From an uncultured Desulfobacter sp. (GTDB taxonomy: Bacteria > Desulfobacterota > Desulfobacteria > Desulfobacterales > Desulfobacteraceae), in contig OY762069.1 of the NCBI GenBank assembly GCA_963665095.1, forward strand, positions 4,512,001 to 4,576,000: 64,000 bases of DNA, read 5' to 3'. Made by a program: the position numbers and the translations under genes. Shown here piece after piece: positions 42,419 to 55,968 of the stretch (the first letter of the stretch is position 1; every line of letters starts with the position of its first letter). Below the pieces are notes generated by a model. It did not search any database. It was not told the DNA's origin and saw only the letters and a list, made by a program, of their open reading frames with translations.

Positions 42419-43279
42419 TTAAATGGCCCGGGCCATGACAGGCAGGCTTTCTGCTGAATATAGCTTAAAAACATTTTCCACCAGGTCAGGCGCCTGGCCT
42501 TCGGACTTTTTGCGTGTCTCTTCATAGGAGAGATCAATGACATCTGAGTCTGCCACAAAAAAGAAATGGTGAAGGTTTTTTTCCATGGGAGCCCGGCTAT
42601 AGGCCTTTTCATACGCCTCTACCATGGTATTCAGGTCCAGGCGCAACGCCACGGCAGGATTCCCGTTTACATAGGAATAGGAGGACATCCAGCCAATTTT
42701 TTCAAACAACAGGATATCTTCATAAATGTTAAGATACTTGGGATGAACCGTGATCAGCAGATCATCTGCCTTCAGATGCCAGGCAGCATAATGCAGGATC
42801 AACCGGTTGCCCAGCATGGGAAGATTTTTATTTCCTTTTCTGAATGCCGGATTTGAAGCCAGACAGCCGGCCTCCACAACGCGACGCCCCTGATTTCTTA
42901 AAGTATCCACTTCCTTTTGAAAAGCTTCGTCCATGGGAAGCCCCAGTTCGTTGTCAGAAAACAGACTGATCGTATATAGAGGCATCTGCATGGCCTGATC
43001 ATCCCGGAGGCATCCCATAAACACTCTGGATTCCGGGTCTTTGTGGTGGGGAACAACTCTGATGGGGACGCTGGACGGGTTTGAAAAACCGGCTTCCACA
43101 TAGACGTCGTGGAGGAGTCTGAAGCACCGGATATAATCCTCAACCGTTACAGCCGGACGCAAAACAATCTCTTTAAGGTCTGTATGAAGTGCCGGCAACC
43201 CGGCGCGAACGGTTTTTTTTCTGAAGTCTGCCGGAAGGCAGTGCATTAATTTTCTTTTCAATCGTTCCGGTATCTGCAT
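42419..43279 (-). CDS. N-acyl amino acid synthase FeeM-like (GNAT-fold) protein
   Basis: FRLLHDVY...G, D...GLPMD..F..EVD.LR.QGRR.VE.G.LA, ITVHP....Y...L.F and NPAV.LRLDL pattern. Confidence 0.65.
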   Translation of the reverse strand: MQIPERLKRKLMHCLPADFRKKTVRAGLPALHTDLKEIVLRPAVTVEDYIRCFRLLHDVYVEAGFSNPSSVPIRVVPHHKDPESRVFMGCLRDDQAMQMPLYTISLFSDNELGLPMDEAFQKEVDTLRNQGRRVVEAGCLASNPAFRKGNKNLPMLGNRLILHYAAWHLKADDLLITVHPKYLNIYEDILLFEKIGWMSSYSYVNGNPAVALRLDLNTMVEAYEKAYSRAPMEKNLHHFFFVADSDVIDLSYEETRKKSEGQAPDLVENVFKLYSAESLPVMARAI

Positions 43280-43535: not shown

Positions 43536-43900
43536 GGCCAAAAACTTTTTAACAGGGACTAAGGGCTCACCCTAAGAATCCTGTTGTTGAAGCATTTTTC
43601 CGAAATCCATGCAAATGGATTAACTTCCAAAGTTACAAAAATTGCATCCGGTTACATAAATTGCACTAAAAACCCCTTTGACATTGATAGAGATTCCGAT
43701 GCATCTGTCTGTGCCGGATATTTTTGACGACCCGGTTCTTTTAATGTATACTTTGTGTTAATTCATATTCAAACTGACTTCTCCTGAACCGTTTTTTTAA
43801 TCGCTGGAAATTCCTTGTGCACCTGTACAGATGCGACATCTTTACCCGTCTAAAACCTTTGCATCTTAATTAGTCCGTCATTGACACGAAAGGAGCAGAT

Positions 43901-44872
43901 ATGAACGATCAGGCGTCCCGGGTACTTCTTCAACGTGCCAGATTTTTCACCATTCTCAGGCGGTTCATGCGCGTGATGATTGTCCTGGTGATATGTTATT
44001 CCCTGGCGGCCATTGTCTATTCCACCCATGTGATTTACAAGGTCAAGCTCAATTACGCCGTTATTTTAGAGCAGTTTGGCGGAAAACGCAGTGTGGTGAC
44101 CGATGTGGGCTGGCATTACCGGCTGCCGTTTTTCACCCGCCTGGAAAAAGAGGTGCCTTTGATGAACCAGAACCTCAACCTCGGCGGATCACCCGACCCC
44201 ATAAAAATTATCTCCAAAGAGAACGTGGCCCTGTGGACCTCCGCGGTGATGACGTTTAAGATCAGGGACCTTAGGAGATGGGGGATTGAAAATCTTTTCC
44301 CTGAAATTCTGCTACAGGGCGATTTTGACGGTATTGCCAAAGATATCCTTCAGGGCAAGGAGGTCAACCGGCTTATCTCGGAGAGAGAAATCATCAAAGA
44401 AGAGATTTTTCAGGCCATGAAACACCGCCCCATCAATACCGATGGCCCTACTCTGGAGAAAAAGTACGGTATTGAAGTCGTTTCGTTTGTTCTCAATGAA
44501 ACCCGGTTTGGCGATAAACTGGTGGAGGCCACGGAGGAGAAGAAACGCCGCCAGCTCATTGCCGAGGCGGACAATTATGCTGCGGATCAGGAAGCGGACC
44601 GGATTCTGAAGCTTTACAGGGCATATCTTAACGGCATCCAATCCCTTCATCTGGCACTGGGGGGCCAAAAAGATCAGCCGGTGAGCCCCGATCTCCTGGA
44701 GTTTTTATCCCAGCAGAAATGGGCGACTGCCTATGAAAAAAGCCAGAATGACCAGAAGACATTCGTACTCCATGCCTCAGGGCAGATGCCTGGGTTGACC
44801 CTGCCGACTTCCCGGCCCCGGGTCATCACTGCTGGAGACCAAAAGCAGGATAAAAAAGCCGGACAGGAATAA
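43901..44872 (+). CDS. SPFH/band-7 (HflC/HflK/stomatin-like) membrane protein
   Basis: AAGGAG RBS; one N-terminal TM, EQFGGKR.V..DVGWHYRLPFF, ISKENV, KYGIEVVSF and an Ala/Glu-rich coiled coil. Confidence 0.85.
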   Translation: MNDQASRVLLQRARFFTILRRFMRVMIVLVICYSLAAIVYSTHVIYKVKLNYAVILEQFGGKRSVVTDVGWHYRLPFFTRLEKEVPLMNQNLNLGGSPDPIKIISKENVALWTSAVMTFKIRDLRRWGIENLFPEILLQGDFDGIAKDILQGKEVNRLISEREIIKEEIFQAMKHRPINTDGPTLEKKYGIEVVSFVLNETRFGDKLVEATEEKKRRQLIAEADNYAADQEADRILKLYRAYLNGIQSLHLALGGQKDQPVSPDLLEFLSQQKWATAYEKSQNDQKTFVLHASGQMPGLTLPTSRPRVITAGDQKQDKKAGQE

Positions 44873-44877
44873 TACCC

Positions 44878-47800
44878 ATGGCCAAACGCACTACAAAGCA
44901 GAAAACCTATATTACCCTGCCCGAGGGAACCATCAAAAAGATTGACTCCATGGTCTCCTTGTGGACTTACGACACCAAGGCCTTTGTCCGGTCCCGTCTC
45001 AATCAGTTCAGGCCTCCCAACCGGTTTTTCTCCTCTTTCAGATCATTCTTATATCTGATGGTCTTCATGCGTCGGGAAAAAAAGCGGATGAAAGTGCTCA
45101 ATGATCCGGCCATTCTGCGGGACTGGAAAAAGCGGTTCCTCTATTCAGGCGAGACCAACCCGGGTGCCTCCTGGAACAAGGTGATTGAAAAAGAGCTGAC
45201 CAAAGCGGAACTACACTACCTGATTGCCGTGCTGGACCGGGAACTGACCGATCTTCATGTGCCGGTGGAACTTGAAAAGATTTTTGATAAAATCTTTAAG
45301 GTCCATTTGCGAAAAGATCATATTGAAGATCCGGATGTCCCCAAGGCGCCGATCATGCTGGTGGAAGGAGCTTCGGGTTCCGGAAAAAGCGCCACTGTCA
45401 GGGAGGCCCTGGAAAAAGTGGTCTTTAAAAATGAAGTGGTTCCGGCTGTGGACTGGCGGCAGAAAAAGGAAAAGCTTCTGGCCAGATACAGCATTTTTAC
45501 CCCCCTTGAAGAGGTGGACCCGGAGTTTGCCCTGGAAGTTGCCAGGAAAAAACGGCTGGTATTCTACCGGCGGCTGGCAGGAATCCCGGTCCTGCGCCGA
45601 ATTTTTAGAAAAAGGATTATGGCCAGTCTTACCAGTTTTGAGGAGCAGGGTATTACTGTGGATTTTTCCGTAATCACCCCCAATGATTACCAGACGGCCC
45701 TGTCCGGAGAGCCGGGCAATTACTTTAAGCGGGCCATGGGTAACCCCAAAATGACATCCATCCGCCACGTTGAAGAGGCCCACTCCGCCTTTGGGAAATC
45801 CGACAACAGTCCCAGCGGCGGAATCGAAAAGCAGCAGCGCACCCTGATCGACACCACCAATATTGTGCTGGATGAAATCATTGACGGGCGGCGGGACTGC
45901 TTTCTCATTGCCACCACAGACCAGGCCCACCGGTTTGACTCGGCCATATACCGGCGCTTTGTGGAAAAAGGCTGCATCATTGACATTTCAAAATACTGGT
46001 CAAACAAAGAAAACCTTAAGCGCATCATTTTCCTTGAAATCCGGCGTCACCAGATCCCCACCGCCTATAGCCCTGATGCCGAGGCGCTTGACAGGGCTGC
46101 GGAAAAAATATTTGACGTTTTCAAAGAGAGAAGTCTGAAAATCAGCCCGGCCTATGTCAGAAAGCTGGTTGATTCCATCATCAACATACGAAGTGATTTT
46201 ACCCCTGAGCTCCTGGACAACACCATCCTGGTCCGCTCTGCCTTTGAGCTGGTGGCAAAAAACGTCTATGGAGAACTCTACTCCAAAGTGGTGGACCGCA
46301 TGGAACGAAACGTGGCCTGGGACGAATATGTGGGCGCCATTAAGGATAAATTTTCAGAAATGGCCAACAACTGCTTTAACTATGGGGTCAGCGAGGACAA
46401 GGGTGTGGTACTCACAGGGCCCCCGGGCTCGGGGAAAACATTTCTTGTGAGAACCTGGCTGGCTGCAAACACCAAGGTCCATGACATTGCCACAAGCCCG
46501 TCAGCCCTGCAGGACCCCTCCTCTCCGGTCCACGGGGCTGTGGCCAACCTGGAAAAGGTGTACGACATTGCCAAGATGATCGCACCCACGGTGATTTTCT
46601 TTGATGAGGGAGATGCCCTGGCTCCCCGGCGTTCTGCCACCGGTGGCCAGCCTTCGGATGCCCTGACCAATAAATTCCTGAACATCATTGACGGCGAAAT
46701 TCCGCTGAACAAGGTTTTCACCGTGCTCACCACCAACCGGCTGGATATCCTGGACCCGGCACTCATCCGGTCAAGGCGTCTGAAAACCCTTGAAATAACC
46801 GGTCACATGCGACAGAAGGATATTTTTGACATCATTAACAAGCTGCTGGATGCCCAGCCCCACCCAAGAAATTTTGAGGTGGAAAGGATCATTGAAACCG
46901 CCCAGCCCATCTGCAATACCCCGGCCGATTATACCTCCTTCACCCAGAAGGCCATTGCCCTTTGTTCCACAGAATTCAAGGTGGTGCAGAAACTGCGGGA
47001 TCTTGAAAAATCCACCCATACGGAAAAATTTGATTTTGTAAAACTCAACTTTAAAACCATCCTGGGTATTCTGGATGCAGTAAAAGCACCGCCCCTTCTT
47101 AAGTCCAATATTAAAAATGATCTGAAAAATTTTGTCTCCCACTATGACCGGATTCTTACCTGTGTGGCCCACGTCTTTGCTGAAAAAGAGTATCCCCTGA
47201 CCCTGACCCACCTGGAATCCGCCCGGCGGGAAATCTCCCAGAGCCCCATTCGGAAAGGGTCTGTCCAGGTTAATGAATTCCTGGAAACCGAACTGAGCCA
47301 GGAACCCCAGGTGGGATTTATCATTGGTGTGGGTGCCAATGATACGGCCGGCATGCTTCTGCCCATTGCCACCAGCCTCACCACCCGGATAGAAGGCCAG
47401 ACCATTATTGTCACCGGTGCCGTATCTTCATCCGCACCAGATGCGGCCCAACTGGACATGGCCGTCCAGATGACCCTGCAGTCGGCCCAGGAGGCCCTGA
47501 CCATGGTGAAAAACTATATCCAGGGACTGACTCCGGATATCAGTATTCCCTGGCTGCTTGGGGATTTTCTGCGCCGCCGCACCATACATCACCAGCTATT
47601 ATCCACCTCCTACAACGTAGGCGGTCCCTCTGCCGGTTATGCCCTGGCCCTGAACACCCTGTCGGCCCTTTTGCGCCTTCCTTTATGCATTGATTTCGGC
47701 ATCACGGGCGCCCCCTGGACCAAAGGTGTCACAAAAAGTGAAGTGGGGGGATCCGTGATCATTGGCGGCCACAGAAAAAAAACGGAAAAGGTGCTGCTCC

Positions 47801-48195
47801 ATCTGCGGCGCATGTTCATGCCCCTTCAGAATTACAAAGACCTGGAACCGGAATTCCTCATTGGCTACTGGCAGCGGCAAAAGGATATCATCGCTGTCAC
47901 CCATTTTGCAGATCTCATGCCTGAAATCCTCTACCTGGGCGATGAACACGAGAAGGACCTTGAGACCCTTGTGGAGATGCGGATAAAATCTAACGTTGCA
48001 GACTATTTTGCCGAAGAACAAAACCCGGATATCCAGAATGAAATATCCGTACTCAAGACAAAGATGCGGCAAAGAGCGGAAAATGAAATCCTTGGCCGGG
48101 TGCAGGCCATCTGCAGATACCTGCAGGACCCGGACCGGGAAAAATACATTTCCCATGAAAAAATTTTCAGAACCTATATGAGGCTCACGCTTTAA
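44878..48195 (+). CDS. Tandem AAA+ ATPase fused to a C-terminal Lon-type (S16) protease domain
   Basis: Walker A GASGSGKS (164-171) with IRHVEE and FDSAIYRRF; Walker A GPPGSGKT (514-521), VIFFDE, TTNRLDILDPALIR; Lon-like PQVG.I.G, IIVTG, GGPS918AG, ITG and GGHRKK968. Confidence 0.85.
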   Translation: MAKRTTKQKTYITLPEGTIKKIDSMVSLWTYDTKAFVRSRLNQFRPPNRFFSSFRSFLYLMVFMRREKKRMKVLNDPAILRDWKKRFLYSGETNPGASWNKVIEKELTKAELHYLIAVLDRELTDLHVPVELEKIFDKIFKVHLRKDHIEDPDVPKAPIMLVEGASGSGKSATVREALEKVVFKNEVVPAVDWRQKKEKLLARYSIFTPLEEVDPEFALEVARKKRLVFYRRLAGIPVLRRIFRKRIMASLTSFEEQGITVDFSVITPNDYQTALSGEPGNYFKRAMGNPKMTSIRHVEEAHSAFGKSDNSPSGGIEKQQRTLIDTTNIVLDEIIDGRRDCFLIATTDQAHRFDSAIYRRFVEKGCIIDISKYWSNKENLKRIIFLEIRRHQIPTAYSPDAEALDRAAEKIFDVFKERSLKISPAYVRKLVDSIINIRSDFTPELLDNTILVRSAFELVAKNVYGELYSKVVDRMERNVAWDEYVGAIKDKFSEMANNCFNYGVSEDKGVVLTGPPGSGKTFLVRTWLAANTKVHDIATSPSALQDPSSPVHGAVANLEKVYDIAKMIAPTVIFFDEGDALAPRRSATGGQPSDALTNKFLNIIDGEIPLNKVFTVLTTNRLDILDPALIRSRRLKTLEITGHMRQKDIFDIINKLLDAQPHPRNFEVERIIETAQPICNTPADYTSFTQKAIALCSTEFKVVQKLRDLEKSTHTEKFDFVKLNFKTILGILDAVKAPPLLKSNIKNDLKNFVSHYDRILTCVAHVFAEKEYPLTLTHLESARREISQSPIRKGSVQVNEFLETELSQEPQVGFIIGVGANDTAGMLLPIATSLTTRIEGQTIIVTGAVSSSAPDAAQLDMAVQMTLQSAQEALTMVKNYIQGLTPDISIPWLLGDFLRRRTIHHQLLSTSYNVGGPSAGYALALNTLSALLRLPLCIDFGITGAPWTKGVTKSEVGGSVIIGGHRKKTEKVLLHLRRMFMPLQNYKDLEPEFLIGYWQRQKDIIAVTHFADLMPEILYLGDEHEKDLETLVEMRIKSNVADYFAEEQNPDIQNEISVLKTKMRQRAENEILGRVQAICRYLQDPDREKYISHEKIFRTYMRLTL

Positions 48196-49523
48196 CGATC
48201 CAGCACCACCTGGCTGCCGTTCAGGAACAATCTTTCCTGTCTGAGCTGCATATCAAGGGAAAACCGGTCCTGGCCGGCAATAAAGAGTCCAGTAGCCATT
48301 CCCGGGATCAGGGGTTCCGTCAGCCAGGTGTTTCCGGTGACAAGTTCAGCCGGGACCTTAAGCACAACATCCAGGGAAAAAGAGGAAAATATCTTTTCCG
48401 GGCGTAGGACAAACAGATAAATCAGGGAGGTGTTGATATCTTTTTCCAGGTTTACATCCAGACTTCCTGTGACCTTTCCCTGGGGCAGTTCAATGTCCAG
48501 CTGGGAAATCTCAAGCCCTGCACCTTTTTTAAGAAGCCCGTTGAGGGCAGATATCGCCCGGGACCTGTTCCGGGTCATCTCATCTTTTAAAACGGGCTGA
48601 AAGTCTGACAGGCTCCCCCCCTGGCGGTCGAGTCGCTGCCCGGCCCTGGCTAACATATCTGAATATAGGGCCAATATCCGTTCAACGCCCTGAATATCCA
48701 CCTGCTTCAGCTTCAGGCCTGCGGACCATGCCGACAATGGCCTGCGGTTCAGCGTCACCCCGTCTGCATGCAGGTCCAGGCGAAGGTTCATCTGTTTCTT
48801 GTTTTCCAGAGCAGTTGTGTCACATGCCCAGGAGACGTTCTGTAGGTCCAGGGAGGCCTGGCTGCTCTTGTCCATTTTGAGCCGTTCAAGAATAAAGGTG
48901 CTTTGCCCCTCCCAGACCAGACTGGTGAGCCTGTGCAGATCCAGTAAAAAGGAGACAGGACCCAGTTTAAATTCAGGGCTGTCAGAAGCCCCCTGCCAGT
49001 TTCCGTCCGCCTTGAGTGTAGCACCCCCTTTGTCTGATGAGATATCTGCATCCATGGCTCCCACCTGAAAATTTTTCCCCTGGTCTTGAAAGGAAAATCC
49101 ATCCAGGTGAATGTTGGATGCAATGGTGCCTGTGACGGAAACCCGTGTCCGGATGGCCAGAGGGTCTTTTCCGTTCAGACGGGTGTTCACCCAGTCTGTG
49201 TACCAGGGATTTTTTTCAAGACTTGTCCTGGATGTTATACTGAAAAGTCCGTGTGTGGCGCGGTCAACCAGGATAAGACGGGGCATATCTTTCCCTGGGA
49301 AACGGGTTTGGGCTTCAATCTGCCAGGTGACACAGGAGGAATAGAGCTGCCGGTCATAATCAACTATTTTGATCCTGTAATATAATCCGGGATGTCGTTT
49401 CCTCTGGCTCTGCTTTTCAACCGCGTTTTTTACCATGCGTTCCATGATAATACCGTTGGCAACAGGCAGGCCGGCGCCAATGACGCCAACTAGGCAGATA
49501 AGGACAATCATCCATCTTTTCAC
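48192..49523 (-). CDS. YdgA/DUF945 family protein
   Basis: N-terminal anchor, YDRQLYSS motif, beta-rich body, LPQGKVTGSL and terminal LFLNG. Confidence 0.7.
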   Translation of the reverse strand: MKRWMIVLICLVGVIGAGLPVANGIIMERMVKNAVEKQSQRKRHPGLYYRIKIVDYDRQLYSSCVTWQIEAQTRFPGKDMPRLILVDRATHGLFSITSRTSLEKNPWYTDWVNTRLNGKDPLAIRTRVSVTGTIASNIHLDGFSFQDQGKNFQVGAMDADISSDKGGATLKADGNWQGASDSPEFKLGPVSFLLDLHRLTSLVWEGQSTFILERLKMDKSSQASLDLQNVSWACDTTALENKKQMNLRLDLHADGVTLNRRPLSAWSAGLKLKQVDIQGVERILALYSDMLARAGQRLDRQGGSLSDFQPVLKDEMTRNRSRAISALNGLLKKGAGLEISQLDIELPQGKVTGSLDVNLEKDINTSLIYLFVLRPEKIFSSFSLDVVLKVPAELVTGNTWLTEPLIPGMATGLFIAGQDRFSLDMQLRQERLFLNGSQVVLDR

Positions 49524-51673
49524 AGACTTTCCTCCAGACAGTCCGTCAGCCGATCCTTGAGTCCGGACCGCCGCAGCGCAGTCCTGTTATTTTCAAAAGC
49601 AGTTTCAAACGCCCGGGTGGCGCCCACAATAATGACCAGATGGCGTCCCCGGGTCATGGCCGTGTACAGCAGGTTTCGCTGCAGCAATGGGAAATGGGCC
49701 GTGGTCAGGGCGATGATCACGGCATCATATTCCGACCCCTGAGATTTGTGAACCGATACCGCATAGGCCAGGGTCAGCTCATCCAGTTCAGGCAGGTCAT
49801 AGGGAACCGTGCGGCCCTCGTAGTCCACCAGTACAACCCCCTTGGCTTTGTCCGCTTCAACCACCCGGCCGATGTCCCCGTTAAACACCTCTTTTTCATA
49901 GTTGTTTTTCAGGTGCATCACTTTGTCGCCGGCTTTAAAGGTGTGGCCGTGGGTGTCAATACCTGAGGGTTCGTCGTTGAGGACAGCCTGCAGTCGCTGG
50001 TTCAGGTTGATGGTACCGGCCTCCCCCCGGTGCATGGGGGTGAGGACCTGGATCTCCTGCACATGGGGAAAGGCTTTGGGAATTCTTTTGGCGCACAGCT
50101 CACAGATGGTATCAGCCACTCTGGACGGCGCACCGGTCTCTATAAAATAGAACTGGGACAGTTTTTCCGGCAACGCGGTTTTTATATCCGGCATCTCTCC
50201 GTTACGGATACTGTGGGCATGCATGATAATGGGGCTTTTCCGGGCCTGGCGAAAAATCCGGGTTAAAGAGAAGACCGCCACCCGGCCGGACTCAATAATA
50301 TCCGAGAGAACATTGCCCGGCCCCACTGAGGGCAGCTGGAAGGTGTCACCGACCAGAATCAGACCGGCCCCTGCCGGCAGGGCCTCGGCCAGCCGGTACA
50401 TGAGCATGGTATCCACCATGGAGGCCTCATCCACCACCAGCAGATCCAGGTCCAGCGGGTTGGTAAAATCATGTTCAAAGGTCTCTGTCTCCTGGTTATA
50501 CCCCAGCAGCTTATGAAGGGTTTTGGCCTTTCGCCCGGTTACCTCAGCCAGGCGCCGTGCGGCCCGGCCTGTAGGCGCTGCCAGCATCACCTTGAGGCGC
50601 AGGATTCTGAATATGACACAAAGTGCCCGCACCAAAGTTGTTTTACCGGTACCGGGACCGCCTGTGATGATGGCCATTTTCTGTCCCAGTATCCGGGTCA
50701 CCACATCCAGCTGCTCTTCCGACAGGGTTACCGCCATGGCAGAGAGCACCTGCTCCTGGATCTGATCTGTATCCATCTGATAGTCGGGACAGGGCATGGA
50801 CAGCAGTGCGTTGACCCGATGGGCAATGCGGGATTCAGCCCGGTACATGGTCGCCAGATAGACCCGGTCCTTTTCCACCACCATCTCATTGTCTGCTTCA
50901 AGGCTGTCAAGCACACCTTCAAGCAGCGCCTGATCCACGCCGGCCTGCCGGGCACAGACCCGGATCAGATCACTTTTAAGTTCAAACACGTGGCCGTCCT
51001 GCTCCAGGTCTATCAGCCTGCAGATCATACAGGCGGCCAGGCGTGCAGTTTCGTCCTTCTCATAGCCCAGTCTTTGGGCCAGGTCATCCACGTCTGAAAA
51101 TCCAAGGCCGGGAATATCCCTGGGCATGCGAAAGGGGTCGGACTGAAGCACATCCAGGGCCCTGTCCCCATAGGTTTTAAGAATCACGGCCGCCTTTGAG
51201 GCGTCAATGCGGGTGTCCTGAAGCACCTCCATGACCCGACGCACCGAATGGTGGGCATTCCAGGCCTCCTCAATCATTTTCTGCTTATTTTTTCCAATGC
51301 CGTATACATCGGTGAGCCGGTCCGGCTCATTTTCTATGATCTCAAACGTCTCTTCCCCGAATGTATCCACAATCCTGTCCGCCAGCTCCTGGCTGATACC
51401 GGCAATCAGACCCGAGCTCAAGTACTTTCTGATGCCTGACAGGGTGGAGGGCAGGGTCACCTCAAAGGAAGAGGCCTTGAACTGATCCCCGTATTTAGGA
51501 TGGCTGGTCCAGGTACCTTTAAGTTTAAGCTGTTCGCCCTGGACCACACCGGGCAGGTGCCCCACCACAGTAATGGACTCAGCCACTCTGGGAATTTGGA
51601 GTCTGCCTACGGTATAATGGTTTTCAGGATTCTGGAATGTGATGCGTGACAGGGTGCCGCTGATGGTAATCAT
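49520..51673 (-). CDS. recD2: ATP-dependent RecD-like DNA helicase RecD2
   Basis: HPKYGDQF, ITGGPGTGKTT, AAPTGRAA, VDEASM, GD..QLPSVG, AYA.SVHKSQGSE and LLYTAMTR motifs. Confidence 0.93.
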   Translation of the reverse strand: MITISGTLSRITFQNPENHYTVGRLQIPRVAESITVVGHLPGVVQGEQLKLKGTWTSHPKYGDQFKASSFEVTLPSTLSGIRKYLSSGLIAGISQELADRIVDTFGEETFEIIENEPDRLTDVYGIGKNKQKMIEEAWNAHHSVRRVMEVLQDTRIDASKAAVILKTYGDRALDVLQSDPFRMPRDIPGLGFSDVDDLAQRLGYEKDETARLAACMICRLIDLEQDGHVFELKSDLIRVCARQAGVDQALLEGVLDSLEADNEMVVEKDRVYLATMYRAESRIAHRVNALLSMPCPDYQMDTDQIQEQVLSAMAVTLSEEQLDVVTRILGQKMAIITGGPGTGKTTLVRALCVIFRILRLKVMLAAPTGRAARRLAEVTGRKAKTLHKLLGYNQETETFEHDFTNPLDLDLLVVDEASMVDTMLMYRLAEALPAGAGLILVGDTFQLPSVGPGNVLSDIIESGRVAVFSLTRIFRQARKSPIIMHAHSIRNGEMPDIKTALPEKLSQFYFIETGAPSRVADTICELCAKRIPKAFPHVQEIQVLTPMHRGEAGTINLNQRLQAVLNDEPSGIDTHGHTFKAGDKVMHLKNNYEKEVFNGDIGRVVEADKAKGVVLVDYEGRTVPYDLPELDELTLAYAVSVHKSQGSEYDAVIIALTTAHFPLLQRNLLYTAMTRGRHLVIIVGATRAFETAFENNRTALRRSGLKDRLTDCLEESL

Positions 51674-51686
51674 AGTTACGGAGGTA

Positions 51687-52244
51687 TCAGGTCTTGATGT
51701 GTGCGGTTATCCAGAGTGCGGCCTCGTAGAGATCCGGGACGCACAGATCCGGAGCTATTCCCTTGTTTTTCAACTCAGCAAGGGCCTTCACCCCTTTTCC
51801 AGTCTGAACCAGGATGGTTCCGGCACAGCCGGCAGCCAAGCCGCAGGCAATGTCTTTTGCCGAATCTCCCACCATCAGGGATCTGGCCGGATCAATCCCA
51901 TGACGCGCCATGGCCTGATGAATGAGCCCGGGCTTTGGCTTGCGGCAGTCACAGCCGGCATCCGGCGCATGGGGGCAGAAAAAGATATCCCGGATCCGGC
52001 CGCCGGCCTTTTCCACCCCTTTTGTCATTTTGACAAAAATATCATCCAGGGTCTGCCGGGTGATCATTTTTCTGCCCACGGCGGACTGATTGGTAATCAG
52101 AATGACATTAAATCCATGGCGGGTTAACAGGGCTATGGCGTCAGGGCTTTTAGGGATAAAATGAAACTCGTCCGGGTGTTTGATATAGGCGTCGGAATCC
52201 TGGTTGATCACCCCGTCCCGGTCCAGAAAAACGGTAAACCCCAT
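51687..52244 (-). CDS. gmhB: D-glycero-D-manno-heptose 1,7-bisphosphate phosphatase (HAD family)
   Basis: FLDRDGVIN, ITNQS, CPH....CDCRKPKPG and MVGD motifs; start uncertain (52244 or 52292). Confidence 0.88.
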   Translation of the reverse strand: MGFTVFLDRDGVINQDSDAYIKHPDEFHFIPKSPDAIALLTRHGFNVILITNQSAVGRKMITRQTLDDIFVKMTKGVEKAGGRIRDIFFCPHAPDAGCDCRKPKPGLIHQAMARHGIDPARSLMVGDSAKDIACGLAAGCAGTILVQTGKGVKALAELKNKGIAPDLCVPDLYEAALWITAHIKT

Positions 52245-52266
52245 GGCTCCCGTGCGGGGAATACCT

Positions 52267-53076
52267 TTACTCTTCGGCAACGGCAAAGACATGGCCAAAC
52301 CCCTCTTCTGCCATGAGGCGGTCGCAGAAGGCCACGGCCTCATTCAGGTTGCTGAACCGGCCGATCCTTACCCGGTAAAACTGTCCCCGGTCATCCTCAT
52401 AGGGGACAATATGGGCATTGAGATACTGTTTTGACAGTTTGGTCCTGTACTGCTCGGCATTGGACCGGACCTTAAAGGCCCCCACCTGGACCGTAAAATT
52501 CCCCTGCCAGTAATCCACCGGCTTAAAAGTAACAGGGGTGTGGTCTTTCTTGGAATAGGCCGTGGCCTTTCCCAGGGCCGTCACCCGGACCCGGGCCGTT
52601 CCCGGCCCCACAAGATCGATGCGTTTGGCCCCGGTATAGGACAGATCAATAATCCGGCCGGAGACAAAGGGTCCCCGGTCATTGATGCGCACCGTAATCT
52701 GCCTGCCGTTATCCAGGTTTTCAACCCGCACCCAGGTATTCATGGGCAGGGTTTTGTGGGCAGCTGTCATGGCGTACATATCGTAGGTTTCACCGTTGGA
52801 GGTTTTGCGTCCGTGAAATTTTTTACCGTACCAGGAGGCCCGGCCTTTTTCCACATAACCGTGGGCAGAGGCCATGGGGTAATAGCGCTTTCCTTCAATG
52901 GTATAAGGCTTCTGGGTGGGTGCGGAAGCTGTATCATCTGTCTGAACTTTCTTTTTCGGATAGGTGGGGCGGCCATCATAAGAATTATGGGATTTTCCGG
53001 CACACCCGGCCATGGCCAGGCTGAGAATCACAACAAACATTAAGGCGCGGTTCAAAAAACTCATACAGGGTATCAT
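52267..53076 (-). CDS. rlpA: Septal ring lytic transglycosylase RlpA lipoprotein with SPOR domain
   Basis: Lipobox MAGC, G.ASWYG..FHG..TSNGE, TAAHKTLP, INDRGPF, IIDLS and C-terminal VQVGAF SPOR motif. Confidence 0.93.
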   Translation of the reverse strand: MIPCMSFLNRALMFVVILSLAMAGCAGKSHNSYDGRPTYPKKKVQTDDTASAPTQKPYTIEGKRYYPMASAHGYVEKGRASWYGKKFHGRKTSNGETYDMYAMTAAHKTLPMNTWVRVENLDNGRQITVRINDRGPFVSGRIIDLSYTGAKRIDLVGPGTARVRVTALGKATAYSKKDHTPVTFKPVDYWQGNFTVQVGAFKVRSNAEQYRTKLSKQYLNAHIVPYEDDRGQFYRVRIGRFSNLNEAVAFCDRLMAEEGFGHVFAVAEE

Positions 53077-53079
53077 CTT

Positions 53080-55431
53080 TTATTGTTGTAAGGCAAAGTT
53101 GAGGAGGTCTTCCATTTTATCGGTAAAATAGAACTCCATTGTGGACTGGATATGGTCGGGCACATCCTCCATATCCTTCTCATTCCACTGGGGCAAAATC
53201 AGGGAACGGATACCGGCCCTGTGGGCGGCAATCACCTTGTCTTTGATGCCTCCCACCGGAAGCACCTCTCCCCGGAGGGTAATCTCGCCGGTCATGGCCA
53301 GGCGGGGGCGGACCTTTTTACCGGTGATCAGAGAGGCCAGTGCCGTAAGCATGGTGACGCCGGCAGAGGGCCCGTCCTTCGGGATGGCACCTTCAGGCAC
53401 ATGGATATGGATATCATGGGTATCAAAAAAGGTATCATCAACACTGAGCTGGTCAGCATGGGAGCGGATAAAGCTTAAGGCCGTGGATGCGGACTCTTTC
53501 ATCACACTGCCCAGCTGGCCGGTCAGGGTCAGTCCTTTGTTTCCCTTCATGGCCACAGCTTCCACAAAAAGGACTTCACCCCCCACAGGGGTCCAGGCCA
53601 GACCCACCACGACCCCGGGAACCTTGATCCGGGTGGCCATATCCGGCATGTTCTGGATGGGACCCAGGTACCCGGCAACATCTTTCTGGCCGATGGTGAG
53701 GTTATCGACTTCGTGTTCGGCAATTTTAGCGGCAACGCCGCGGCACACGGCCCCAATCCGGCGTTCCAGGTTGCGCAGGCCTGACTCCCGGGTATATCCG
53801 GAAATTATCTGTTTGACCGCGCCTGTGGTGATCTTGATCTGACCGGAATTGATGCCGTTGGCCTCCCGCTGTTTGGGAATGATATAACGGGTGGCGATTT
53901 TGAGTTTTTCTTCTTCAGTATATCCGTTGAGTTCCAGCACCTCCATCCTGTCCCTCAAAGGCGCCGGAATGGTGTGCAGTACATTGGCAGTGGTCAGGAA
54001 AATAACATCAGACAGGTCAAAGGGCACATCCAGGTAATGGTCAACAAAATTCTGGTTCTGTTCCGGGTCCAGCACCTCCAGCAGCGCAGATGATGGATCT
54101 CCGTGGTAGGAAGAGCTGACCTTGTCGATCTCATCCAGCATGAATACGGGATTTTTTCTGCCTGCGGACCTCAAGTGCTGGATAATCCGGCCGGGCATGG
54201 CCCCCACATAGGTTCTCCGGTGGCCTCTTATCTCTGCCTCATCTCTGACGCCGCCCAGGGCGATACGGACAAATTCCCGGCCCAGGGCTTTGGCAATGGA
54301 ACGGCCCAAAGAGGTCTTTCCGGTGCCCGGCGGACCGAAAAAGCACAGAATCGGCCCCTTGGAATCATTTTTGAGCTTTCGTACCGCCAGATACTCAAGG
54401 ATCCGTTTTTTTGGTTTTTCAAGGCCGTAATGATCCTGGTCCAGAATTTTTCTGGCTTCGGCAATGTCCAGGCGGTCTTCGGAAAAGTCATGCCAGGGCA
54501 GGGAGGTCAGCCAGTCAAGATAGGTGGAGGCCACCACATATTCGCTGGATGAAGGATGCATCCTTGCCAGGCGGTCCACCTCCCGGTCCGCCTCCTTGCG
54601 GGCCTCCTCAGGCAAATCGTTCTCCCGGATCAGGGCCCTGTACTCACGGATCTCCACAGATTCGTCATTTTCTCCAAGCTCCTCTTTAATGGCTTTAAGC
54701 TGCTGGCGCAGATAGTACTCCCGCTGGCGCTTGTCCATATCTTCACGCACCTGATTCTGGATCTTGGAACCCATCTCAAGGATTTCGAGCTGGTCATTGG
54801 CCAGCCGGGTGACTTTTTTCAGCCGCCTTGTCACATCCAGCAGCTCAATGACTTTCTGTTTTTCATGCACGGGAGCATTAATGGTGGAGGCGACCATATC
54901 GGCAAGAGCGCTGGGTTCCTGAATGGTTTTCACCATCTGGCCCATCTCCGGGGGCAGACCGGGCGAGAGCTCCACGATTTTGCCGTACTGATCCACAATA
55001 TTGGACATCAGGGCCAGATTTTCCTTGTTCCTGTCTGTATTCCGGCTCTTCAGAACGGAAATACTGGCATGCATATACTCCCGGTTTTTAAGAAATTCAA
55101 CCACCCTGAAACGGTTCATTCCCTGGATGAGCAACTGGGCCTTTTCATCTTCCATTTTGGACAGCTTAAGAATCATGGCCACGGTGCCGATGCGGTAGAG
55201 GTCGTCTGCCGTATGTCTGGAATCAATGTCCGAACGCCTGGATAAAAGAAGCCCCAGCATCCGGTTACCGGCCATGGCATCGTCAATCAGGTCAATGGCC
55301 TCTTTCTGGATCAGCACCAGGGGCAGCACCATTTTAGGAAACAAATTGGTATCCACGATGGGAAGGATAGGAAGATTGTCCGGAATATCGTCTGTGGTGA
55401 TGGGGACGGAGGAATGTTTTAATTCATCCAT
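53080..55431 (-). CDS. lon: ATP-dependent protease La (canonical LonA)
   Basis: Lon N-domain, GPPGTGKTS, RGHRRTYVGAMPG, LDEIDK, PKDGPSAG with the catalytic Lys 43 residues later. Confidence 0.96.
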   Translation of the reverse strand: MDELKHSSVPITTDDIPDNLPILPIVDTNLFPKMVLPLVLIQKEAIDLIDDAMAGNRMLGLLLSRRSDIDSRHTADDLYRIGTVAMILKLSKMEDEKAQLLIQGMNRFRVVEFLKNREYMHASISVLKSRNTDRNKENLALMSNIVDQYGKIVELSPGLPPEMGQMVKTIQEPSALADMVASTINAPVHEKQKVIELLDVTRRLKKVTRLANDQLEILEMGSKIQNQVREDMDKRQREYYLRQQLKAIKEELGENDESVEIREYRALIRENDLPEEARKEADREVDRLARMHPSSSEYVVASTYLDWLTSLPWHDFSEDRLDIAEARKILDQDHYGLEKPKKRILEYLAVRKLKNDSKGPILCFFGPPGTGKTSLGRSIAKALGREFVRIALGGVRDEAEIRGHRRTYVGAMPGRIIQHLRSAGRKNPVFMLDEIDKVSSSYHGDPSSALLEVLDPEQNQNFVDHYLDVPFDLSDVIFLTTANVLHTIPAPLRDRMEVLELNGYTEEEKLKIATRYIIPKQREANGINSGQIKITTGAVKQIISGYTRESGLRNLERRIGAVCRGVAAKIAEHEVDNLTIGQKDVAGYLGPIQNMPDMATRIKVPGVVVGLAWTPVGGEVLFVEAVAMKGNKGLTLTGQLGSVMKESASTALSFIRSHADQLSVDDTFFDTHDIHIHVPEGAIPKDGPSAGVTMLTALASLITGKKVRPRLAMTGEITLRGEVLPVGGIKDKVIAAHRAGIRSLILPQWNEKDMEDVPDHIQSTMEFYFTDKMEDLLNFALQQ

Positions 55432-55515
55432 TCTCTTTCCTTTTTAATAACAATAATCTTTTTCATAGGTTGCTATGGGGTACCTTACGCGAAAAGTCCG
55501 AATTGCTTATGGCTG

Positions 55516-55968
55516 TTACAGGGCATCAGCCGGCAATTCCCGTTTTGGGGGCGGATTTTTTCTTGCCTGTTTTCCCAGCCTGAGCTCAAGAAATCCATTG
55601 GCATAGGATGCAGATACCTTTTCCATGTCAATGACACTGGGCAGGTAGAGTACCCGCTCAAACTGTCCAAACTGAATTTCTGCCAGCCGGTAGGTGGCAG
55701 TGGGATCCGGCTGACTGCTTTTCCTCAAGCCCGAAATTTTAACGGCCTTGTCAGACAGTTCCACAACCATATTTTCCTTGCGGACTCCGGCCATTTCAGC
55801 CTGGATAATGATCTCATCCCTTGTCTCAAAAATGTCCATCTGGGGTCGCCAGACGCGTTTTGAAAAGCAGAACATGGGATTGACGGACTGAAACATCTCG
55901 TCAAAAGATTTTTCTTCAGTCTCAGGTGTTTCAATATGGTCCCCGAACCGAATCTCTATCTGTTCCAT
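55516..55968 (-). CDS. Hsp20/alpha-crystallin small heat-shock protein
   Basis: WRPQMDIFET, AEMAGV, EIQFGQFER and ASYANGFL motifs; upstream of lon. Confidence 0.9.
   Translation of the reverse strand: MEQIEIRFGDHIETPETEEKSFDEMFQSVNPMFCFSKRVWRPQMDIFETRDEIIIQAEMAGVRKENMVVELSDKAVKISGLRKSSQPDPTATYRLAEIQFGQFERVLYLPSVIDMEKVSASYANGFLELRLGKQARKNPPPKRELPADAL

Follow-up and report, generated by a model that had tools for sequence, protein, structure and literature searches.

An SPFH-linked protein joining tandem Cdc48-like AAA modules to a Lon protease domain in Desulfobacteraceae

The locus described here raises the question of what a Lon-type protease domain does at the end of a chain with two AAA modules, encoded directly behind an SPFH protein. 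The window, meaning the whole 64,000-nucleotide stretch of DNA that was analysed, was the subject of a preliminary description reporting an SPFH gene with its own ribosome-binding site, 5 nt ahead of an ORF for 1105 residues, and the coordinates, the AAAGGAG sequence and a Band_7 match all agree with that. The two ORFs lie on the same strand (Table 1), and similar ribosome-binding sites are visible in most of the homologous upstream regions. Chance fusion or an assembly artefact is ruled out by more than 100 full-length homologues among the matches listed. The protein is also not the housekeeping Lon, as had been argued from a canonical lon about 5 kb away; that gene is at 53080-55431, 4.9 kb from the protease gene, and the genome has six Lon_C matches of canonical strength.

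Table 1. Coordinates of the features of the SPFH-protease locus, numbered from the first nucleotide of the window
Feature	Position	Strand	Basis
Sigma70-type promoter TTGACG-17-TATACT	43724..43752	+	10/12 consensus matches
Ribosome-binding site AAAGGAG	43889..43895	+	Sequence, before SPFH ORF
SPFH/band-7 protein, 323 aa	43901..44872	+	ORF, domain search, sequence
RHH-AAA-AAA-Lon protein, 1105 aa	44878..48195	+	ORF, domain searches, structure model
Ribbon-helix-helix (RHH) domain, residues 4-46	44887..45015	+	Strand-helix-helix in model; hhalign
Basic amphipathic helix, ~47-72, candidate membrane anchor	45016..45093	+	Charge, moment
AAA module D1, 126-470	45253..46287	+	Walker A K170, Walker B H-V-E-E, pore loop T-A-L-S-G-E, arginine finger Y-R-R; p97/Cdc48 alignment
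Helical insertion separating Walker A from Walker B of D1, 185-257	45430..45648	+	Model
AAA module D2, 478-790, including helical insertion in lid 701-790	46309..47247	+	Invariant residues, NCBIfam
Lon/S16 protease domain, 805-1020, A-type site	47290..47937	+	Profile alignment, dyad, model
S918 codon	47629-47631	+	Catalytic Ser in GGPSAG
K968 codon	47779-47781	+	Catalytic Lys in IGGHRKK
C-terminal helical hairpin, 1021-1105, family-specific	47938..48192	+	Model; distant members have it too

Sequence comparison predicts that a housekeeping-type sigma70 promoter is conserved upstream of the SPFH gene. The promoter search in the window, with 3 sites against 1.9 in shuffles, is weak taken alone, and the same element occurs in 46 of 81 homologue upstream regions, mostly from related Desulfobacteraceae, against 1.5 in shuffles. 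In the homologue regions AT-rich words flank the promoter, with AAATA.TTT ahead of the -35 box. A TGAAnTTY-like word follows the -10 box in 14/46 regions against a shuffle control of 0.6, which overstates it since the word was chosen after the sequences were viewed, and in the window's own promoter region this word is not clear.

Starting from the C-terminus, Pfam Lon_C covers residues 799-990 at E = 2e-4, barely above the cut-off, and the domain has sequence matches to solved Lon domains. Aligned by profile to the Lon encoded in the window (Prob 95.9), the domain has both catalytic residues in register, and the Ser918/Lys968 dyad is invariant in all 138 homologue rows covering it (106/106 bacterial, 32/32 distant). 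The AlphaFold2 model of the protease has a pLDDT of 82 and a pTM of 0.70; an earlier model from 32 sequences, with pLDDT 61.6 and the AAA and Lon cores unresolved, was set aside. The model matches BsLonBA 8dvh (Z = 19.1, rmsd 3.2, 181 residues), LonA 4ypm (Z = 18.8, rmsd 2.3, 181 residues), E. coli Lon 1rr9 (Z = 18.3, rmsd 2.5, 178 residues), NVL 9bji (Z = 20.0, rmsd 9.0, 474 residues) and BrxL (Z = 15.3, 10-13% identical when structurally aligned), and a viral fold library returned matches to generic AAA and Lon alone. Sequence and model together indicate that the C-terminal domain is a Lon protease fold with an intact Ser-Lys dyad, as the preliminary description had supposed.

The domain order, from the N-terminus, is RHH, amphipathic helix, AAA D1, AAA D2 and Lon. 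That the chain has two AAA modules, the second of the classical FtsH/CDC48-like kind, is upheld by Pfam AAA (residues 510-636, E = 1.5e-25) and by matches of the model to p97 and NVL. The best NCBIfam match of the protease is CDC48 (TIGR01243), at 83 bits against a cut-off of 803, and the two modules align in tandem to p97/Cdc48 over roughly 600-740 columns; in a quick tree of 55 AAA domains, D1 and D2 are both long branches of unsettled placement. D2 contains GPPGSGKT (514-521), VIFFDEGD (572-579) and TTNRLDILDPALIRSRR (618-634), with Walker A/B, sensor-1 and arginine fingers all intact, and K520, E577, N620, R631 and R634 are invariant over 106 rows from bacteria and 34 distant ones. The best-conserved regions of the protease are D2 (0.77) and the Lon domain (0.76). 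D1 has the P-loop GASGSGKS (164-171), in which K170 is invariant in the aligned homologues, and an atypical Walker B with E-E in place of D-E. Its pore loop 1 is without an aromatic in most bacterial members (Leu in 85/105 rows), and the D2 pore-loop variants listed for bacterial rows have no aromatic at the usual position. Because these aromatics are missing, strong unfolding or membrane extraction by the bacterial members is doubtful. The distant rows keep W/Y in the pore loop (32/35), in a p97-D2-like T-x-W-Y-G-E.

The atypical D1 Walker B and the missing aromatic pore loops go beyond the preliminary description, and so does the N-terminal domain. Aligned by hhalign to 18 RHH_1 proteins (30 minus 12 near-duplicates), the N-terminus scores 31.1 (Prob 93.6, E = 2.1e-7), where the control scores do not exceed 19.8 (102 other sequence windows) or 14.6 (100 column shuffles). 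With the N-terminus alone, Pfam searches gave RHH hints solely below cut-off and a PDB profile search gave 0 matches. The best 40 domains found by RHH-HMM in 429 proteins begin within the first 25 residues in 37 cases. By profile alignment and model the N-terminus is thus assigned as a ribbon-helix-helix domain, a predicted strand-helix-helix with the RHH hydrophobic pattern. Conservation in bacterial and distant rows is 100% and 97% for Thr6, 99% and 77% for Lys/Arg7, and 87% and 71% for Arg/Thr/Lys13. Helix B starts with E/D-T-K, with an invariant Trp at the turn, where the templates have a Ser/Arg-rich start. Region 44-72, which takes in the helix behind this domain, has a mean net charge of +3.6 and a hydrophobic moment of 0.54 over 106 bacterial rows, and a very basic amphipathic helix at 222-254 in the D1 insertion averages +9.8 in 108 bacterial rows and +5.1 in 32 distant rows. 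These basic helices could be DNA-binding instead of lipid-binding. The protease has no transmembrane segment, in that no 19-residue window rises above a hydropathy of 1.5.

The SPFH partner matches Pfam Band_7 over residues 48-232 (E = 1.6e-15) and is made up of a conserved N-terminal L-x-R-A tail, one transmembrane helix that is its single hydrophobic segment (~22-40), the SPFH domain and a coiled-coil region. Since Lys/Arg counts are higher before the helix than after it in 76 of 82 homologues, and equal in the other 6, the N-terminus is probably in and the SPFH domain out, that is, periplasmic; the call is a crude one, as the genome's other SPFH proteins, measured in this way, have no clear bias in charge. 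With 15 bits on TIGR01932 (HflK/HflC) against a cut-off of 134, and with stomatins as its nearest solved relatives (E = 0.03-0.3), the protein is classed on sequence as a separate SPFH subfamily, not HflK/HflC.

How firmly are the two genes tied together? A homologue survey of the adjacency finds the SPFH gene immediately upstream in 87 of 87 bacterial loci that have upstream DNA, all of the neighbourhoods being bacterial and related so that the counts are not independent. It is directly upstream in 72/80 GTDB loci, the remaining 8 ending at a contig edge; in 9/15 family loci from metagenomes, of which the other 6 begin within the gene; and in 6/6 genome loci at 48-57% identity. Among 142 Desulfobacteraceae genomes the protease part is found in 84 and the SPFH gene in 82, with both genes in 81, neither in 57 and 4 discordant, of which the sole complete one carries just a frameshifted protease remnant. 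The SPFH profile matches 5/251 genomes of the phylum, and the four beyond the centre genome share contigs with protease matches. The distance correlation between the two proteins, 0.94 over 82 pairs, is expected from shared descent alone. The protease is strictly co-inherited with one SPFH subfamily. It occurs in 20/22 genomes of the genus, nearly always single-copy, in 48/201 genomes in the order of Desulfospira and in 11/401 genomes of the phylum. The distant full-length relatives are labelled Woese- or Nanoarchaeota, and a metagenome scan with the distant alignment gave 63 generic AAA matches besides 15 family loci of bacterial type.

Beyond the pair, some loci have neighbours that would suit membrane quality control. 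A FloA-NfeD operon adjoins in 19/95 loci; it runs on the other strand and is limited to related genomes, so it may be synteny by descent. An Hsp20 gene lies 3' of the protease gene on the same strand in 4/101 loci, and hflK/C-like genes adjoin the protease locus in 1. The 30 commonest neighbour families that were scanned are metabolic or housekeeping, save one small HNH protein in 3 loci; no BREX genes are among the common neighbours, and the neighbourhood survey found no transcription factor as a conserved neighbour.

The established SPFH-protease precedent, going by the available text of PMC12048511, is FtsH-HflK/C. Like it, and like m-AAA with prohibitins, the pair combines an AAA motor of the classical clade, joined in one chain to a protease, with an SPFH protein that has a single N-terminal helix as its anchor. 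FtsH, however, is an M41 zinc peptidase with one AAA module, where the present protein has a Ser-Lys Lon peptidase, two AAA modules and an N-terminal RHH domain with no transmembrane or periplasmic domain, and a single SPFH gene stands in place of the K/C pair. The idea of an SPFH-caged two-ring unfoldase-protease keeps its architecture, its dyad and its dedicated SPFH gene and loses the FtsH-like seat: without a transmembrane segment, and with the SPFH domain predicted to be across the membrane, the protease cannot simply sit inside the cage. Cdc48/p97/VAT share the tandem classical AAA modules and give the best sequence and structure matches, the D1 loop T-A-L-[SA]-G-E resembling S-K-L-A-G-E of p97 D1 and the distant members' T-M-W-Y-G-E resembling T-M-W-F-G-E of p97 D2. 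The N domain of Cdc48 is a double-psi barrel, in place of which the present protein has the RHH domain and helices; it further differs in its large insertions in D1 and the D2 lid, its fused protease, its D2 loop without an aromatic and a family score far below cut-off.

With LonA, LonB, LonC and LonBA (MEROPS S16) the protein has in common the Lon fold and the Ser-Lys dyad, and with LonA the A-type G-P-S-A-G site, which the available text of PMC9569914 defines by the Pro preceding the catalytic Ser. According to that text, the Ser and Lys of LonBA, like those of the LonA and LonB subfamilies, have 42 residues between them; in the present protein there are 49. Also unlike Lon proteases, it has two classical AAA modules, an SPFH partner gene, no transmembrane anchor and no LAN domain; LON_substr_bdg, present in the window's Lon, is absent from the best 25 of its 32 domain matches, and it scores 33 bits on TIGR00763 (LonA) against a cut-off of 608. 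Archaeal LonB has Asp before the Ser and a transmembrane anchor inside the AAA+ module, unlike the basic, non-transmembrane D1 insertion here. LonC has lost its ATPase residues, which are invariant in D2. LonBA, from Firmicutes, has one AAA+ module and an N-terminal fragment of 72-73 residues, in contrast to the two modules, 1105 residues and Desulfobacterota and archaeal labels here, and the corresponding test, TIGR02902, gave 29 bits against 723. BrxL of BREX likewise fuses an AAA+ module to a Lon-like domain, with one module of another clade, MCM-like. Trifunctional PutA also carries an N-terminal RHH domain on a large enzyme and offers an analogy for movement between DNA and membrane; its catalytic domains are unrelated, and DNA binding and switching are here candidate properties. 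That the architecture belongs to no described family agrees with these scores and with the literature covered, in which no description was found; subscription journals, MEROPS listings and supplements lay outside that scope and could mention it.

We favour, with a probability of about 0.55, the reading that the operon encodes an accessory membrane quality-control machine, a membrane-docked ATP-dependent protease under an SPFH cage, possibly autoregulated. The SPFH protein would oligomerise into a dome on the periplasmic face, with one anchoring helix per subunit, fencing off a patch of inner membrane. Beneath this patch the protease would dock as a cytoplasmic hexamer by the basic amphipathic helices 47-72 and 222-254, with the conserved SPFH N-terminal tails sharing in the docking. 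D2 would supply most of the ATP hydrolysis and D1 serve mainly as scaffold and entry ring, while RHH domains would pair at the entry end as three dimers per hexamer. The substrates would probably be membrane and membrane-proximal proteins that are damaged or in surplus, threaded into the Lon chamber and cleaved by Ser918/Lys968. By analogy with PutA, the RHH domains may also bind DNA, which would give autoregulation by enzyme that is not at the membrane. Against a quality-control role, the genome already has six strong Lon_C matches and two FtsH-like genes, along with several pairs of SPFH genes.

The RHH domain, kept from bacteria to the distant members, can be given more weight than this. 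It might direct the hexamer to sites on DNA or, through strand pairing, to regulators of the RHH type, so that the enzyme represses genes or destroys a DNA-bound regulator, with the SPFH protein sensing the envelope state and keeping the enzyme membrane-held until stress shifts the balance. Weak pore loops would suit few, poorly folded substrates, conserved AT-rich words flank the promoter, and PutA, which in the available text of PMC5293562 alternates between DNA-bound RHH repressor and membrane enzyme, is a precedent. Against this, the helix B start and invariant Trp differ from the RHH templates, the TGAAnTTY-like word was picked post hoc, and a conserved transcription-factor neighbour is lacking; we regard this signalling protease as possible, on the unlikely side. 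A related proposal, which we find doubtful, is a self-contained, archaea-derived Cdc48-Lon protease that would shuttle between two states: on DNA, as a repressor acting through RHH dimers on its own operon or on a stress regulon, and on the cytoplasmic face of the periplasmic SPFH dome, as a docked membrane-protein dislocase-protease.

The motors may instead be largely uncoupled from proteolysis, which would make the protein either a membrane-associated chaperone or an ATP-gated peptidase acting on chains that are unfolded beforehand, as in LonC and, in vitro, BsLonBA, for which the available text of PMC9569914 gives no ATPase and very weak proteolysis. The poorly active BsLonBA is among the top structural matches of the protease domain, the pore loops and D1 Walker B are degenerate, and motor and protease can be separate chains, because five proteins, 695-733 aa long, all end at one common point past D2, the remainder being found in a distinct 405-aa protein. 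Such uncoupling is nonetheless improbable given that K170 of D1, the two arginine fingers and all catalytic residues of D2 are invariant, that D2 and the protease domain are highly conserved, and that the distant members have kept the p97-D2-like loop. Defence, also raised in the preliminary description, finds little support in neighbourhoods or distribution. An anti-phage system, with the SPFH protein as the sensor of membrane breach or DNA injection and the protease as an effector that breaks down phage or host proteins, would fit the patchiness at higher ranks, the structural match to BrxL as a defence AAA+/Lon-like fusion, and one protein, P0157, that joins the protease domain of this family to a caspase domain. 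We consider it very unlikely in view of the near-universal, single-copy occurrence in the genus, the metabolic and housekeeping neighbours, a GC content of 51.3% in the locus against 48.7% in the genome, the absence of any family member in plasmids at E 1e-30, and viral contigs with 31 pattern matches and none confirmed; PADLOC matches cover generic AAA parts of the protease only, with none for the SPFH protein.

The known self-compartmentalised ATP-dependent proteases follow a handful of designs, and here a Cdc48-type double motor and a Lon chamber are in one chain with their own SPFH scaffold. The protease is a single-polypeptide test of a type II AAA motor feeding a protease, and the pair lets one ask what SPFH cages do without a membrane-spanning protease. 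The operon can be tested because it is present in the cultured, non-pathogenic sulfate reducers Desulfobacula toluolica, Desulfospira joergensenii and Desulforapulum autotrophicum HRM2. With its RHH domain, the protease may regulate its own genes; were the shuttling proposal true, an AAA+ protease would be its own transcription factor, with an SPFH cage as its switch across the membrane, and this would be a third, independently assembled SPFH-protease machine. The relatives labelled as DPANN archaea suggest a proteostasis module common to Bacteria and Archaea.

The pair formed by the SPFH gene and the gene for the 1105-aa RHH-AAA-AAA-Lon protein is real and conserved. The two ORFs and their 5-nt spacing, the RBS and every motif quoted in the preliminary description, which had proposed an SPFH protein with a tandem-AAA-Lon fusion as a protease system, are found in the sequence as stated, and the canonical lon that it placed nearby does encode a complete LAN-AAA-Lon_C protein. 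The SPFH protein has a Band_7 match (E = 1.6e-15) and a single hydrophobic helix at the N-terminus, and the 1105-aa protein has matches to AAA (residues 510-636) and Lon_C (799-990), with no hydrophobic segment found along its sequence. A TTGAC-17-TATACT promoter is kept in 46/81 upstream regions of homologues. The FeeM-type gene beside the operon is no conserved neighbour of the pair; the stop of the DUF945 gene overlaps that of the protease gene.

Features around the SPFH-protease operon and at related loci
Feature	Location	Strand	Remark
FeeM-type N-acyl amino acid synthase domain gene	window 42419-43279	-	divergent from operon
SPFH protein, 323 aa	window 43901-44872	+	
RHH-AAA-AAA-Lon protein, 1105 aa	window 44878-48195	+	
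DUF945, RecD2-like helicase, GmhB-like phosphatase, RlpA-like, canonical lon, Hsp20-like gene	window 48192-55968	-	DUF945 and lon named by domain search, remaining names read from sequence
Canonical lon	window 53080-55431	-	
FloA-NfeD	L002, L010-L013, L016, L017, L022, L029, L031, L035, L038-L040, L048, others		downstream of protease gene

The fusion gene is single-copy in the source genome, which also contains six Lon_C matches of canonical strength, two FtsH-like AAA genes and twelve Band_7 genes, the last including two SPFH-gene triplets, each with one multi-helix member of 580-600 aa. A relative is encoded in 338 GTDB stretches, and among the best 80 of these the SPFH gene is directly upstream in 72; the remaining 8 are truncated by a contig end. 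The same arrangement is found in 9/15 metagenome family loci, where the other 6 start inside the gene, and in 6/6 more distant genomes. Over 81 complete pairs, the two genes are -71 to 212 nt apart. Across 142 genomes of the host family, 81 carry the pair, 57 lack its two members and 4 contain a single one; these 4 are a complete genome with a decayed remnant and 3 fragmented assemblies. Frameshifted remnants of the protease gene were seen at L195 and L196 (genomes G866 and G867) with the SPFH gene absent nearby; G867 carries an intact pair besides its remnant. The protease is present in 20/22 genomes of the genus, 48/201 of the order of Desulfospira and 11/401 of the phylum. At 19/95 loci a FloA (flotillin-like) and NfeD operon is convergent to the protease gene, and at 4/101 (L086, L160, L161, L162) an Hsp20 gene lies directly 3' of it on the same strand.

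The AlphaFold2 model of the 1105-aa protein, from 144 sequences, has a pLDDT of 82.3 and a pTM of 0.70. Foldseek gives p97/Cdc48 as the top match with an alignment spanning both AAA modules, D1 and D2, and a structural search finds NVL at Z = 20.0 (rmsd 9.0, 474 aligned). Residues 808-1020 match the protease domains of BsLonBA (Z = 19.1, rmsd 3.2, 181 aligned) and LonA (Z = 18.8, rmsd 2.3, 181 aligned). In a profile alignment with the window's Lon, GGPSAG falls on DGPSAG and K968 on the Lon catalytic lysine. The Ser-Lys spacing is 49 residues, the same distance as in LonBA and compared with 42 in LonA and LonB, according to the available text of PMC9569914.

The N-terminus, on which the preliminary description is silent, is a ribbon-helix-helix domain, modelled as a strand (8-14) and two helices (16-28 and 31-43). 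The profile of residues 4-46 aligns ungapped over 39 columns with 18 RHH_1 proteins, the set left from 30 fetched from related genomes after removing 12 near-duplicates (Prob 93.6, E = 2.1e-7, score 31.1); control scores reach at most 19.8 for other windows (n = 102), 14.6 for column shuffles (n = 100) and 9.8 for the reversed profile. When the HMM of these 18 proteins is run against 429 proteins, 37 of the 40 top domains sit at the protein start. Pfam gives only sub-threshold RHH-type matches for this N-terminus, and a PDB search with it gives zero RHH matches. Two helices, one around residues 47-72 and the other (222-254) within a D1 insertion, are basic and amphipathic, and this character is conserved.

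The SPFH protein forms a subfamily of its own, 52-77% identical to 81 partner SPFH proteins, scoring far below the HflC cut-off and with stomatin, weakly, as the nearest solved structure. Its N-terminal tail has a conserved L-x-R-A motif. In 76/82 SPFH proteins Lys/Arg are commoner on the N-terminal side of the helix than on its far side; this admittedly crude measure suggests that the tail is short and cytoplasmic and the SPFH domain periplasmic.

Our best reading, to which we give a probability of about 55%, is that the protease is a cytoplasmic hexamer that would dock on the inner membrane beneath a periplasmic SPFH dome and there degrade membrane-associated proteins, with RHH dimers placed at its entry end and possibly involved in autoregulation. 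From gene linkage alone, we infer that the SPFH protein binds the protease. We find it rather doubtful that the protein is a signalling protease, targeted to DNA and retained by the SPFH protein. Strand residues Thr6, Lys/Arg7 and Arg/Thr/Lys13 of the RHH domain are suited to contacting DNA, but helix B begins differently from the RHH_1 templates, so DNA binding is a candidate activity only. Phage defence we consider very improbable; the genes flanking the pair vary and are housekeeping or metabolic. A motor largely uncoupled from proteolysis is likewise improbable, somewhat less so than phage defence.

S918 and K968 are invariant, as are K520, E577, N620, R631 and R634 of D2 (106 bacterial and 32-35 distant rows of the alignments). 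D1 retains K170 and R359/R360, and its Walker B is E-E in 104/105 bacterial rows, the first residue being non-acidic in 13/35 distant rows. Of 105 bacterial rows, 85 carry Leu in the D1 pore loop and 20 an aromatic residue, while 32/35 distant ones have W/Y there, then mostly Y-G-E; p97 sequences display both loop types, SKLAGE in D1 and TMWFGE in D2. Among the variants listed, the D2 pore loop has no aromatic at the usual position.

Full-length relatives were found at 31-38% identity, and the minority bearing a source label are named Woesearchaeota, Nanoarchaeota, "archaeon" or Pacearchaeota. A quick tree of 61 proteins, midpoint-rooted without outgroup and with long branches, unites the 36 bacterial rows in a single clade (support 100) and spreads the distant ones over several deeper branches. 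Transfer of the family from archaea would fit. A candidate split form comprises five proteins of 695-733 aa (P0133, P0304-P0307), whose RHH-D1-D2 part stops at one common point, and the separate P0148 (405 aa), in which the lid insertion and Lon domain are found together with the tail; Pacearchaeota is the label given to a cluster-mate of P0305. In P0157 (595 aa), a single Logan record, a caspase (C14) domain is fused to the family's Lon domain plus C-terminal hairpin, and the site has become A-T-T-S-I-G. The ESM Atlas holds two AAA + Lon_C clusters of ~910-920 aa (118 and 110 members, mostly Bathyarchaeia/Thermoproteota), which score 0.97 by features, were not recovered by sequence searches, and are perhaps a second tandem-AAA-Lon family.

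Although its peptidase domain is a member of S16, the protein as a whole does not match LonA, LonB, LonC or LonBA, and despite its Cdc48-like motors it is no Cdc48 either. FtsH-HflK/C is the closest system in mode of working, going by the available text of PMC12048511 and PMC12994072, although the protein lacks the features that define an FtsH. PutA, as described in the accessible part of PMC5293562, may serve as an analogy for an RHH-bearing protein of this kind. The 2008 survey's table of Lon architectures, in the part available (PMC2605481), has no tandem-AAA form, and our literature search, which covered neither subscription papers nor supplements, found no description of RHH-AAA-AAA-Lon. 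The pair is apparently undescribed: it adds a variant to the ATP-dependent proteases associated with SPFH proteins and, by architecture, a new subfamily to Lon.
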